Below, piece after piece: positions 24,301 to 30,300 of a stretch of DNA of 64,000 nt. How positions within the stretch are numbered: position 1 is the first letter of the stretch; each line of letters starts with the position of its first letter. This stretch comes from Tubiluchus corallicola. Its lineage: Eukaryota > Animalia > Priapulida. The notes beneath the pieces were generated by a model. That model saw only the letters and a list, made by a program, of their open reading frames with translations, made no database searches and was not told where the DNA came from. Made by a program: the position numbers and the translations under genes. The stretch covers positions 32,498 through 96,497 of the forward strand of contig JAQGDQ010000778.1 in the NCBI GenBank assembly GCA_030141605.1. The letters run 5' to 3'.

Positions 24301-27300
24301 ACTAGCGACTGCAACTGCACAGTCTTGCGAGACTAGCGACTGCAACTGCACAGTCTTGCGAGACTAGCGACTGCCAACGCCAGGACATATACCTACATAA
24401 TAATAATAATTGTTTGTTTCAAGAGAAGAGTTATATGTTAAAGTACAGTTTTAAAATGTTTTTTTTTTGTAGTTTCAAGGTAGTTTTTGTTATATTTTTA
24501 ACAACTGTTTAATGTAAGTCTCTGATATTGCATAATTAGTTTCTGTATATATCGTTTGGCGCACAAAAATGTGCGAAAATTTAGACTACAGCAATATTAG
24601 AAGCAAGCGTCTCACCACAAAGTATAACTTGGTATTAGAGTGCCACAAGCGATCTAATTCCCCTTGTTTTATTTATCCACGTAAAAACCTATACTATTTC
24701 TACTTCTACATTGTTTATTTTTTACTAAAAACTGGCACGTTTCACATTTGTAAGTGTTTCGTTCTTCACCTGCCATGTTTTACTATAACAGGTCAACAAC
24801 CCCAACTTTCGCACATGTTTTAGTTACATTTGATAATTGCTGCAAATCACAAGTATTTAAGTAATTCTGCAGGCTTCCCATGGTGATTGAAAAATTTTTC
24901 AAATGTAACTGGCATGTATTTTCATTTCCTTCCCGTGCACGGATGCACATTGGACAGACAGCATTTTCCACTGGGTTCTATCGGCGGCTTCTCTTTCGAT
25001 GTTCTCCCAACGTCTGTTAATAGCCCAAAGGTCTTCTTTGAAAGATCTGCGCCACGTTGTTTTTGGCCGACCTCTTTTCCTTTTTCCATCAGGTGGTTCC
25101 CAGCGTAACGCTATTTTGGAGTGGCGTTGTTCTGGTAGGCGTAGAATATGTCCAGCCAATCTCAGCCTTCTCTCTGCGACTATTTCCTGCAACCGCCTTG
25201 ACTGCGCCTGCTGTAGGACTTCCACATTGACAAGCGAAGTTTGATTTTCTTGTCAATTTTCTTGCTTGCCCAGATTTTTCCCATCTTCCTAAATACTGCT
25301 GCTGCTTTGCCAATTCTCACCCTGATGTCGCTTTCATGTCCACACTGTCGAAACTTTGGTCTTTTCATGACCTATTCTCTGTCCAATTTTCACTGCAGTA
25401 GCTTTTAATGATTTTGAAACTGTATCACTGTGTGAAAACTCTGTATAACTGTAAAAATTTGTTAGCAAAAGTTACGAATGTCTATGATTTCTTTAAATTG
25501 GAATATTACAACTTCATTTATATTTCTACCTCCCAGCATTAACACTTCAAGTTTCCTTTGTGAATTTTATTCAGTTATTAAATATTCTCACGTAATATGA
25601 GCTCTTAGATGTTCGGTTGTAGAAAAAGGCATTTTATGCACTAATGTTAGTTTTGGTTCAGCAAAATCTGAAAAAATGATATATGGTTCAGTGTAGTTTG
25701 TTTCTTGGGTAGATTTTTCCATTCAGTGAGCAAACATTTCTCTTCAAAAAGCTCGTTTTGGTGAAAATCCTATTATTAACATCACTTATGTACAGTCAAG
25801 TTACATAAGTGGTTCAATTAAAAGAAATTAATAGACTAATAGCAAAAGTAAAATAAATATCAAACACCGAACAATAAAAAAGCACAGTTGTTATTTACAT
25901 ACAAGAAGACAAAGCATTAATTTTGCATTTGTCATTATGATTATTTTTCATCACATTTCATTGTGAAATCATAATTTCTAATTTTGGTTTTTACTGATTT
26001 TTATTTAAGTTTAACATCCAAAATGGATAAAAATGAGAATTGCTCAATTCCTTTACTTCTATGAAAACATAACGTTTGCAGCTTTGATGCCGTTTCATGT
26101 TATAGCTGTAGATGCTTGTTATGTTGCGTTATATTTTCGACTAGAGCTAAGCTTTGTGTAACTTACTTGCACTGGGTGTAATAGTAACTTTTTAAACTGA
26201 TTTTAGGTTGCGATTGCGGATATTAGCGTTCCTGATCCGAACACTGCTGGTCAAGATCCGACAGAATCAGTGGATAGCTATCCACCCGGTGAAACTTCGA
26301 CATGCAAAACCACTGAAACTGTCAGCACTCAGAATTCTGGAAATGCGGACACGATCACCACCGACAGCGCTGCGGGCACAGCGGCGGAAACGGCAAGTAA
26401 CTACCCGCCAGGTGAGACGTCTACCTGCAAAACCACTGATACGGTCAGTACGCAGAAGGCAGGACAAGCTGATACTAACACTACCGACAGCTCCGCAAAC
26501 CAAGAAGCTGCAAGTAACTACCCGCCCGGGGAGACGTCTACCTGCAAGACGACAGACACGGTCAGCACTCAGAAGGCTGGCCAGTCAAACACTAACACTA
26601 CCAATAGTTCTCCAAATCAACAAGCTGCTGAACAGTACCCGCCCGGAGAGACATCCACCTGTAAGACGACAGACTCGGTTAAAACGCAAAATTCTGGACA
26701 GTCAAACACTAACACGACCGACAGCGGCACTGCCAGCGGTTCTTCTGCAAACAGCGATGAGTCACAAAATGAAGCCAAAGGAGATGAAGCCAAAACTACA
26801 AAAGAAGAAGATAAACTGCCATCTGGTGAGCAGTCGAGTTACAAGACAACCGATACAGTAAGCTGCCATTCATCCGGACAAGCTGTCACACACACGACAG
26901 ACAGCTCTCCAAAACAAAAGTGCACTATCCAAGCCGTTGCCATGGCAACTCAGCCAGTTGAGCAGATGCCACCTGGTGAGACTTCTACGTGCAAAACCAC
27001 TGATACGGTGAGCACCCAGTCTGCAGGACAGTCCAACACAAACACTACTGATAGTGCAGCAGCAGCAGCAGCTCAGCAGCAGGGAGAGACATCCGGAGAA
27101 GGAACCTCTGCACCGTGTAAGTACAGAGATGATTATGTTCTGTTGATGCTTGATATTATTTGGTATTTGATATTTAAGCTGGAATACTGTAATTAATACA
27201 CAATTAGACGTACTTAATTGCTGCTTAAACATACCAGCAGAATCACTTTTGTTCCAGTGTTGTCACCAGTAACCAGTTTTTCTCTGCCAAATGGACTGAT

Positions 27301-30300
27301 TTTGCGGACCATGTTCCGTCTTGACGCATTGTCTACACAATTTACTATTTATAACAATTACTAAAATGCTTCTGCTAATTAAATGAGTTCAGAAGATGCT
27401 TAATAAATGATCGACCAGCTAATGATGAAACCACCACTGGGTAAAATTGTCAACAGACGATCATTTCAAGTACTTCTGGAAGCAAAATATGGCACTGTTG
27501 TATAATGTTTGCAGTGAAATTCAAAAACTTGGCAAATTTTCAAAATTCACACAGTTCCCAAATTTTCAAATTTAGAGTTGGTTAACGTGATTTCACAAAG
27601 CTGTCCAAATGTCAATACTGGAACGCGTTCTGCTGATCAAATATGCCATTCATTTTTTGCCCAAGGAGTTTCCGATTGTCAGCATTGCTATATGTATAAG
27701 AATACAAATCTAAGAATCTGCCGTCTTGATATGAACGGCTGAAAGCACACAACATTTGAATTAGCAACCTCAGACTTACATGCTAACATTTCATTCATGT
27801 AAGTCATTCTTAAAGAACGATATTTCTTTTTCATTTTTTTACATTGTGAATCATTTTATGCTTGAATGATGTTTTCCTTTGAATTTGCTTCATACTCCAA
27901 GCAAACACTCTGTTCCACTTTTTGAGCAATGTGCAAGCAATTTCTAGGAACATTTGCCCGTCTTTCTCACCGTTCTCTTTGAAATCGATGCGGTGATTAT
28001 TTGGTTATTTTTTCCAACCAACTAGCTCATAAATTGCCAGAATTGCCCCCTAATAACAGTTTTCCAGACAAGTAAAAAATGATTTCCAGTCGATCAGGTA
28101 TCAACCTTTAAATGCACTACATGTGGAGCTATGTATTAGCTATAGATTATGCAAAACAAGGCATCATTGATAAATCTTTAGAGCTGCTGTCAACTAGCGC
28201 AATCTATTATCTTTCTTCCTGCCATTTCCACTAACACATCTTTCTACCCTTCCTGTGTGATCTAACCTTTCTCCCAGTTCTTTTTTTTTTGTTCACTCAT
28301 CCATTCTTTTTTTATCGGGTTCACATGACAGTGGGTTTATACAAGCCTTTGCTTCTCTAACCCACTGCAGTACAATTATTCTTTTACGATAACGATAGTG
28401 TATGAAACATAACAATTTAATACAGTGTGACGTAATAATTTTGATGTCACTGTGTGCTTAATGTCATTATATTGTACTGAATGTGATAATAATAATAATA
28501 ATAATAATAATAATAATAATAATAATAATAATAATAATAATAATAATAGCCAAGTATAACATTGAATCCGTTTTTGGCACTGCAAATGCAATAGGAGCCG
28601 TACTTTTTGTTTTATGCTCTTTCATTATTTCATGCTTCGTGTTTTTAAGATGCATAAAAAGTTCTTTTTATTGTAGGTGAGACAACTACCACCAATACCA
28701 CTAATACCACCACCACTGCTGCGGCCAACAGCGGTGAAGGTGCGAACACAACTGAGGCACCTGCAGAAGAACAAGGTGCAGCAGCGCTACAAGAACAACA
28801 GCAGATGGAAGACAACGAACAACAAGCTGAAGCTACCCCGGAGCAGCAGCAGTCTGATATGTCCTTAGGCGACGGACCCGTTGCACAGCAGTCTGATATG
28901 TCTGTGGATGGTGCACTAGAAGATGCCCCAATGGAGGCAGTAAAGGTCAGTTCACAGGTGCGTGTTAGCTTGTTTGCTGTCTCGTCTTTGCAATCTTTCT
29001 CGGTGTAATCTAGGAAGTTGATAGCGCACACAGTGGTAGGGATTGGTTGACGTTCAGACTGCATGAAAGTTTTGGGTTATGTGGTGCATATTTAGATTTT
29101 ATACAATTTTTTAAAAATCCACCTGTACAACTCACAACCACTGCAGTTTGTCCACTGCTAAATGTGCCATAATGCTGAAACTTGGGTGATCAATGACCAC
29201 CAGCAAGGATGAGAATTTTCCGCGGATACGCAGAATTCCGAGTTTTTGGAATACCAGTAGTGCCATTTTTGTAAATCGCGTAAATTCGTTGAGAAAATGT
29301 TTTTACAATACATTACATTATTTCACAAGCTGACCGCTAGTTGGCAGGCTGTCACTTTGTTTACATCACGTACATCAGTGGAACCACGTGTATATCGCTA
29401 TGTGTAAAAATATAGAATCAATTGTGCGGAGTTATTTGAGTCAATTGCAGACAGTTTTGCATAGGAGCGGCCAGTGCTTAGGCGTTTTTGAGACAATTAG
29501 GTATCATGTATCCTTGATATTTGGGTATTTTAAATTATGCATAAAACAAGGTAATTGATATTTTAAGTCCACGTAGAGGCTATGGTCACAAAATTGCAAT
29601 TTGTTGCTGGCTCCCCTTGAACTCCATTGGGGCTTAGGTGGCCCCAAACCCCCCGGACTGTTTCAGAGTTTTTTACAATTTGTCATTCTCATCCCTGCAT
29701 AAGTCATTTATTTCACATTACACATTTACAATAGTTTCATGTACAATATCTAGTGAAAGGGCCTACAATGAACATAATATAAATAAGTTTTTATTGTTTC
29801 TGCACAAGAAAAGCCTCAAACATTGTTCACCTATATACGAATGTAAATGTGTTGCGGGCAATCAGAAAGCAGGTGGCCCGAAAACCCCCGGCCTGTTTCA
29901 GAGTTTTTTACAATTTGTCATTCTCATCCCTGCACCAGGAACATCCAAACAATAAACTCACAGACAAGTTGTCAGGTGCATAGAATAAGGAATGCACTGT
30001 GAACTATGTAAATAGATCAAAATCAGTGCAAGAGTTCGACGACTTTTAATTGAAAATTACAATTACAAAAATTACATGTATGATGGTCGCTGTGTCTTTG
30101 ACAGGAATTTAATATAATTTTAAGGGAAAATTACAATCCATGTTAATTCGGCAAATACATTTTTGTAGTAGTTGTATGTCGTACGTCGACACCTTTGGGG
30201 CAGCTATGCCCTCTATTCAGCATTCAGTTTTTATTTGCCTCATATGACTGAGAAGAGGTTCACATAAGTGCAGTTGTTTTATAGCATAGTAGCAGTTAAA

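Follow-up and report, generated by a model that had tools for sequence, protein, structure and literature searches.

PRO-like repeats in the linker of a probably non-chordate HCF protein, candidate sites for cleavage by OGT

Vertebrate HCF-1 is the one proteolytic substrate known for OGT (PMC6240873, PMC11440498), which cuts it at its PRO repeats, while Drosophila HCF is processed by Taspase-1, at the motif Q-X-D/G-X-D-D (10.1101/2020.11.26.400622). PRO repeats are described as confined to vertebrates (PMC4840301, PMC4549301), as an earlier note on the DNA treated here also stated, with not even degenerate copies elsewhere (PMC4840301), and a viral origin of the vertebrate repeat has been hypothesised (PMC4840301). 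Here we report seven PRO-like repeats in an intact HCF gene, found in a stretch of 64,000 nucleotides of animal DNA (contig JAQGDQ010000778.1; this whole stretch is the window in what follows). Contrary to the claim in print, the repeats are real, spliced, under selection and rare. We put at about 0.55 the probability that OGT cleaves this HCF, most likely at the seventh repeat and probably by convergence with vertebrates.

The rules of OGT cleavage, as published, define three parts of the repeat. The cleavage region spans P7-E10: P8A and C9A inhibit cleavage, T11-E13 matter little, and Glu10 weakens OGT binding (PMC4549301). A three-residue linker, of which the length matters and the side chains little, is followed by the Thr region from T14 onwards (PMC4549301, PMC6240873, PMC4840301), where Thr14 is important, contacting OGT K396 and D431 (PMC4840301), and where the absence of Pro has been noted (PMC11440498). 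OGT also cuts a CK2 chimera carrying Thr7 and Val9, though less well, provided that the register between Glu10 and the Thr region is kept (PMC6240873). Multi-repeat substrates bind far tighter and are cut better, a lone 26-mer not being cut, and PRO arrays that cannot be cut still bind OGT very tightly (PMC11440498). OGT from Drosophila and from Trichoplax is able to cut the human repeat (PMC4840301), and degenerate repeats are described in chimaera (10.1101/577890, PMC6582346). A literature search, subscription papers lying outside its coverage, retrieved no paper on invertebrate PRO-like repeats in HCF.

Seven repeats in an intact HCF gene

On the forward strand, to which all coordinates refer unless stated, the HCF gene (189..47699) opens with an ATG at 189 and probably stops at 47699, with 27 coding exons for about 1637 residues. 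It was modelled with tblastn of seven homologues; exons 1-26 have AG/GT ends throughout and keep a single open frame, and the putative last exon (47639-47699), picked among four candidate acceptors, yields 1637 residues with a basic tail. All features of the family are present, namely an N-terminal HCF Kelch domain, a split Fn3 module, basic and acidic regions and a C-terminal basic tail, in the order Kelch, Fn3n, basic region, repeats, acidic region, Fn3c, tail. Single exons match Pfam Kelch_HCF and fn3, as well as solved HCF Fn3 structures; with the tblastn results, these matches confirm the earlier reading of the protein as HCF. The basic region (exons 9-18, 10016..23626, residues 386-920) is defined by the gene model and by composition, with 34 Lys plus Arg against 4 Asp plus Glu; the RNA check covers its junction 19299/19711 only. 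The Fn3c module (exons 23-25, 40259..43046) rests on Pfam and structure matches.

The tandem repeats lie where PRO repeats lie in HCF-1, with the basic region upstream and the acidic region downstream, in a part of the protein that looks disordered. Exon 19 (26207..27116, 910 nt), supported by its open frame and by contigs of the run X2, holds six repeats of Gly9 type and the A-P-C start of a seventh. It is followed by a phase-1 GT-AG intron of 1560 nt (27117..28676), placed within the Cys9 codon of repeat 7 and bridged by an X2 contig, and by exon 20 (28677..28945), with the end of repeat 7 and the start of the acidic region, which is supported by the gene model and by an X2 join of 28945 to 31506.

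Numbering residues by PRO position, repeats 1, 2 and 3 occupy 26264..26371, 26387..26494 and 26504..26611, with Glu10 at 26291, 26414 and 26531. Repeat 4 (26621..26728, Glu10 at 26648) has Ser19 and Lys21; repeat 5 (26801..26908, Glu10 at 26828) is degenerate, with Ser8, Gln11, Tyr14 and Cys22, and is likely inactive; repeat 6 lies at 26951..27058 (Glu10 at 26978). The Glu10 codons of these six are spaced by 123, 117, 117, 180 and 150 nt. Repeat 7 is made only by splicing, from a donor after 27116 to an acceptor before 28677: its 5' part (27110..27116) encodes Ala7, Pro8 and the first base of the Cys9 codon, and its 3' part (28677..28717) the remainder of Cys9, Glu10 at 28679 and the Thr-rich region to Thr22, the closest match to the vertebrate core.

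Glu occupies position 10 in all seven repeats. The heads at positions 7-10 are PPGE in five, PSGE in one and APCE in one, so that exact P7-P8-C9-E10 occurs in none. Cleavage region, three-residue linker and Thr region keep their register in all seven, and no repeat has Pro at positions 11-26. The consensus and the degenerate copy given in the earlier note are recovered in the frame 26207-27116, the degenerate copy being the fifth; the seventh repeat that it proposed exists in spliced form, and its placement of the array at the PRO position, between basic and acidic regions, holds. Its exon numbers change, from 20-21 to 19 and 20.

Transcript support comes from X2, a run taken to be RNA by guess and differing from the window by about 6-11%, which points to another population or a sibling species. 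By its alignment coordinates, one X2 contig covers 27019-27114 and 28679-28758 with exactly 4 bases between, as exon 19-20 splicing needs. Two further contigs join GT..AG introns of the gene, one of them from 28945 to 31506, and another covers 26676-26998, in repeats 4-6, without gaps; no X2 cover was seen on repeats 1-3, which is no evidence of their absence. In DNA, a contig of X1, possibly the source sample, covers 26206-28003 without a gap and shows 4 differences. Since the X2 contigs fit the junctions, the existence of the array is established, and a close relative transcribes and splices it as in the model; the presence of the repeat exons in HCF transcripts, on which the earlier proposal depended, is thus supported insofar as X2 is RNA.

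The repeat core is under strong purifying selection, and its most constrained part coincides with the published OGT footprint. In the five canonical copies, the proportion of nonsynonymous differences (pN) at positions 7-22 is 0.045 and its ratio to the synonymous proportion (pN/pS) 0.061, with pS about 0.74, near saturation; pN/pS rises to 0.243 at positions 23-36 and 0.575 at positions 1-6, and is 0.139 in the core when repeat 5 is included. These values are uncorrected, and the copy pairs are not independent. Positions 26, 30, 32, 33 and 35 are also invariant.

Two further tandem arrays touch exons of this gene. A 50-bp repeat of 3.1 copies (8990-9145) duplicates the exon 8 acceptor and first codons, creating two extra upstream acceptors, and a 57-bp minisatellite of about 39 copies (44725-46942) starts at the exon 26 donor.

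Likeness to the vertebrate core and the case for OGT

Likeness was scored by ungapped BLOSUM62 on positions 7-22, with carp HCF-1 (P0192), whose six repeats share the core of human repeat 2 in PMC6240873, as reference. Repeat 7 scores 58 and is identical to carp at 11 of 16 positions (P8, C9, E10, T11, T14, T16, T17, N18, T19, T21, T22); repeats 2, 3 and 6 score 38 and repeat 1 scores 37, each with 8 identities, repeat 4 scores 32 with 7, and repeat 5 scores 18. The ungapped register drawn in the earlier note is kept. A score of 58 was reached in none of 20,000 shuffles each of the linker, the repeat region and the 51 residues around repeat 7. Shuffling its own 16 residues reached it in 2 of 100,000 cases; the same procedure gave weaker results for repeats 1, 2, 4 and 5 (130, 92, 208 and 1339 of 100,000).

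As a control we used 111 non-vertebrate HCF clusters, that is, all of 192 proteins with at least 850 residues except two vertebrates and P0121-P0123, isoforms and near-duplicates included. Their best window scores 37, or 29 with Glu in place. None of their 7098 Glu has Pro8 and at least four of the key Thr (14, 17, 19, 21, 22), against one in the protein studied here, and none combines Pro8 with a hydroxyl residue, or Cys at 14, at each of the five key positions, against five here. All five key Thr are present in repeat 7, three in repeats 1, 2, 3 and 6, with Cys14 and Ser21, and two in repeat 4; repeat 5 fails the rule.

A repeat of this kind occurs in a second species. A profile of the array, searched among 1.84 billion proteins, found two matches, of which P0121 is genuine; the other, P0122, was rejected as a snail low-complexity repeat. 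P0121 (Logan, 265 residues) has one repeat, PPGE with Thr at 14, 17, 19, 21 and 22, followed by an acidic stretch. The repeat scores 48 against the carp core, a value reached in none of 100,000 shuffles, and P0121 is the top non-carp match of a hidden Markov model (HMM) of the carp repeat among 193 proteins. It aligns to the window HCF at 33% over 206 residues, and shows that Gly9 is shared, and Thr possible at position 14, in this repeat family.

The alternative protease appears to lack its site. The window protein contains neither Q[FILVM]DG, a scan pattern with a chosen set of P2 residues, nor any Q-x-D-G site; its only hydrophobic-Asp-Gly site, SVDGALED (28901..28924), lacks the Gln of the motif and is possibly a vestige of it. 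Seven conserved Glu with Thr-rich repeats, and no canonical Taspase-1 site, make maturation by OGT likely. The TPR groove of OGT would bind the Thr-rich stretch, and OGT would glycosylate Glu10, the chain being cut just before it. The cut would most probably fall at the Cys9-type repeat 7, the best candidate site, rather than in the six-repeat array, whose Gly9/Cys14 copies may serve as weaker cut sites or as added docking sites for OGT; the two halves would be held together by the Fn3 module, as happens in HCF-1. That the array works like a PRO array, with repeat 7 as its best site, we hold to be somewhat better than an even chance.

Several observations weigh against cleavage. The array has Gly9 where C9A inhibits, repeat 7 has Ala7 in the sensitive region, and Thr14, which is important, is replaced by Cys in five array copies and by Tyr in one; the earlier note correctly described the array as of Gly9 type, but underplayed the Gly9 and Cys14 departures of that array. 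When the head is kept constant and positions 11-22 are shuffled, between 3085 (repeat 7) and 11,314 (repeat 4) of 100,000 shuffles attain the observed score, and the array scores of 37-38 do no more than equal the best unconstrained window of other HCFs. At E<=0.001 the array profile retrieved no vertebrate HCF-1 from the 1.84 billion representatives; against PDB at E<=10 it matched no PRO peptide, though these are in the library, giving two unrelated matches, and no carp repeat lies within its top 25 local matches. Repeat 7 scores 1.9 bits on the carp HMM with the bias correction of HMMER, which discounts biased composition, and the vertebrate unit has nothing that corresponds to the second conserved block at positions 30-35. 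P0121, a fragment with no Kelch or Fn3, is an HCF by likeness only. Lack of a Taspase-1 site does not force another protease either, because 26 of 84 classed HCFs have neither such a site nor a repeat array of the kind described below. Likeness to the PRO repeat is thus significant in context, not database-wide, and the repeat-HMM scan suggested earlier succeeded in finding P0121 but not in linking the vertebrate repeats.

Other searches with the repeats were uninformative or negative. Exon 19 gave none of 7989 candidates in a word search against longer proteins and no PDB match at E<=10, and no Pfam family falls on the repeat exons or on P0121; the single ESM Atlas match, at 0.75, is uninformative. 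Of 157 metagenome stretches three passed, all by a chance 14-residue match in one unrelated, repeat-free open reading frame. None of 53 viral-contig stretches carries the array, which, for that collection only, gives no support to a viral source. A dynein-light-chain motif at the T-Q positions was considered and dropped, the usual following Thr being found in no copy.

Some of these observations would suit repeats that dock OGT through its TPR groove, or serve as O-GlcNAc sites, and are cut negligibly or not at all, HCF remaining whole and tethering OGT. Gly9, Cys14 and Ala7 sit where alanine impairs cleavage (PMC4549301, PMC4840301), the extra Thr block at 30-35 is conserved, and tight binding persists in uncleavable arrays (PMC11440498). 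A pure docking site should, however, lose Glu10, because this residue weakens OGT binding (PMC4549301), and Glu10 is invariant in the seven repeats and in P0121; we regard docking alone as unlikely. Somewhat more doubtful still is that the array is one more lineage-specific linker repeat, serving another partner or protease, with a likeness due to Pro/Thr composition and a repeat 7 that is lucky or vestigial. Unrelated arrays do occupy the same linker elsewhere (Cys-x5/6-Cys units in 44 of 84 HCFs, a Gly-Asn-Pro tract in Strigamia), the profile searches do not tie the array to vertebrates, and the tail-only shuffles are just marginally significant. Yet the strongest constraint coincides with positions 7-22, no control Glu satisfies the rule, and two differently built repeat types in one protein, together with a second species, keep the same Glu-to-Thr register.

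Host lineage and origin of the repeats

The host of the window HCF is likely outside the sampled chordates, judging from the protein. Over Kelch plus Fn3n, identity is 82-84% with molluscs, Owenia, Lineus, Lingula, Limulus and lancelet, 82% with jay and 77% with carp. In the basic region it is 44-50% with most of the protostomes sampled, and 35% with chordates and with cockroach; carp and jay share 75% there. In the basic-region tree, chordates group without the window HCF (100/99); in the Kelch plus Fn3 tree it falls outside an 11-row lophotrochozoan clade (98/99), of whose 7 diagnostic residues it has none. Topology tests rejected only window plus Owenia plus P0038 (p 0.012) and, on the basic region, window plus vertebrates (p 0.041); clades with lophotrochozoans (p 0.189, 0.444) or arthropods (0.153) and a position as sister to chordates (0.412) were not rejected. 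That the animal is a chordate, such as a jawless vertebrate or an unsampled early chordate, with diverged ordinary PRO repeats, is very improbable: the named references include no cyclostome, tunicate, echinoderm or hemichordate, and on Kelch plus Fn3 a clade with carp is not rejected (p 0.149) and the best tree groups the protein weakly with chordates (31/82), but its basic region is closer to molluscs, nemertean, brachiopod, Owenia, centipede and horseshoe crab (44-50%) than to carp, jay and lancelet (35%), these last three form the 100/99 clade without it, and grouping with vertebrates is, narrowly, rejected.

The non-vertebrate host proposed in the earlier note is thus borne out by the basic-region identities and tree, on the protein and not on the 5S type invoked there. 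The 5S ribosomal RNA copy (10436-10554, Rfam) lies in HCF intron 9 and is followed by a dispersed-repeat tail; from the unit at 10436-10992, this tail recurs at 91-92% identity elsewhere, as at 50451-50799, with no Rfam 5S match. Copy and tail are possibly a 5S-derived short interspersed nuclear element.

The HCF linker has been filled in various ways. Of the 111 clusters, 84 could be classed, 27 being skipped as fragments or for want of markers: 44 have at least three Cys-x5/6-Cys units, 14 have Q[FILVM]DG, 26 neither and none both. One skipped fragment, P0052 from Ruditapes, has both a Cys array and a Taspase-1 site. Cys arrays occur in bivalves, several gastropods, nemerteans, horseshoe crabs, scorpion, spiders, ticks and lancelet, at the PRO position (P0005, P0011, P0021, P0032, P0046, P0049, P0063, P0071, P0093, P0135, P0148, P0151, P0156, P0169 and others). 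They may serve as a third signal for processing, bind metal, or represent the ancestral form of the PRO repeat; our literature search, again with subscription papers outside its coverage, found no paper on them in HCF. In P0053 (Strigamia), a tract of Gly-Asn-Pro/His repeats takes the same linker position.

Related Cys units are found among protostomes and among deuterostomes alike, which suggests that their ancestor had such an array. Vertebrate PRO repeats also start with V-C-x4-C, and their descent from a Cys array is possible. In our judgement, separate origins of the window and vertebrate repeats are slightly favoured, since lancelet has a Cys array; shared descent has a little less than an even chance, and transfer is scarcely credible. 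Of the two origins envisaged in the earlier note, convergence is thus likelier than a mechanism older than assumed, lancelet and most sampled protostomes having other linker types. The OGT signal would then have evolved separately from its vertebrate counterpart, within a linker where various repeat arrays have appeared on many occasions.

More broadly, we suggest tentatively, and short of even odds, that OGT glyco-proteolysis of HCF evolved once more outside the chordates, on a Gly9-type repeat particular to that lineage, and that the HCF linker is an ancient repeat slot, occupied by a Cys-x5-Cys array in the bilaterian ancestor, where OGT cut sites can arise in place. If so, the vertebrate PRO repeat would no longer require the viral origin put forward in print, and OGT would have in this HCF its first natural proteolytic substrate other than vertebrate HCF-1. 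An invertebrate HCF with a repeat that occurs naturally and is kept by purifying selection contradicts the published vertebrate-only distribution and makes the question of origin testable, and Gly9, Cys14 and Ala7 offer natural variants for probing OGT substrate rules.

Other features of the window were noted. HCF intron 22 contains a 435-codon antisense frame with an IBR domain (36972-38276, reverse strand; Pfam E 1.6e-9), which may continue in another exon downstream (34654-34965, reverse strand). A dystroglycan-like gene (51091-57218, reverse strand) has a DAG1 match (E 1e-18) on 51091-51933 and a 960-codon Ser/Thr-rich, mucin-like frame upstream. HCF introns also hold a hAT transposase remnant (16591-17271; Pfam E 7e-4, below cut-off) and a frame (24902-25252, reverse strand) which we take to resemble the end of a retrotransposon reverse transcriptase, with no Pfam match.

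Comparison with known systems

Taspase-1 processing, as of Drosophila HCF, would split the protein in the same linker; the window HCF has only the Gln-less SVDGALED. The Cys-x5/6-Cys arrays of molluscs, nemerteans, chelicerates and lancelet resemble the present one in being tandem, in the same position and usually unaccompanied by a Taspase site, but have shorter units, two Cys often with His, an acidic rather than Thr-rich tail and no Glu in the PRO register.

The closest system is vertebrate HCF-1PRO (human; PDB 4N3A/4N3B/4N3C; carp P0192), with which the window HCF shares the family, the place between basic and acidic regions, an array mostly on one large exon, the P-x-E10-T11 head, the T16-T17-x-T19-x-x-T22 register and a Pro-free Thr region. 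Its six array copies differ in Gly9, Cys14 (or Tyr14), Lys15, Asp18 and Ser21, in having no V-C at 3-4, in a second Thr block and in a unit spacing of 39-60 residues; its best copy is intron-split, with Ala7 and Asn15, and its host lies, probably, outside the sampled chordates. Having no exact P-P-C-E head and a non-vertebrate host, the array is not a formal member of the PRO class. In degenerate jawed-vertebrate HCF repeats, of which there are two per protein, the cleavage Glu is kept, as it is here. The engineered CK2(Glu10)-Thr-rich chimera (PMC6240873) is artificial and has the full human Thr region, including Thr14, and Val9 instead of Gly9; like the repeats described here, it departs from the canonical residues near Glu10 and keeps its Thr region in register, and it is cut by OGT.

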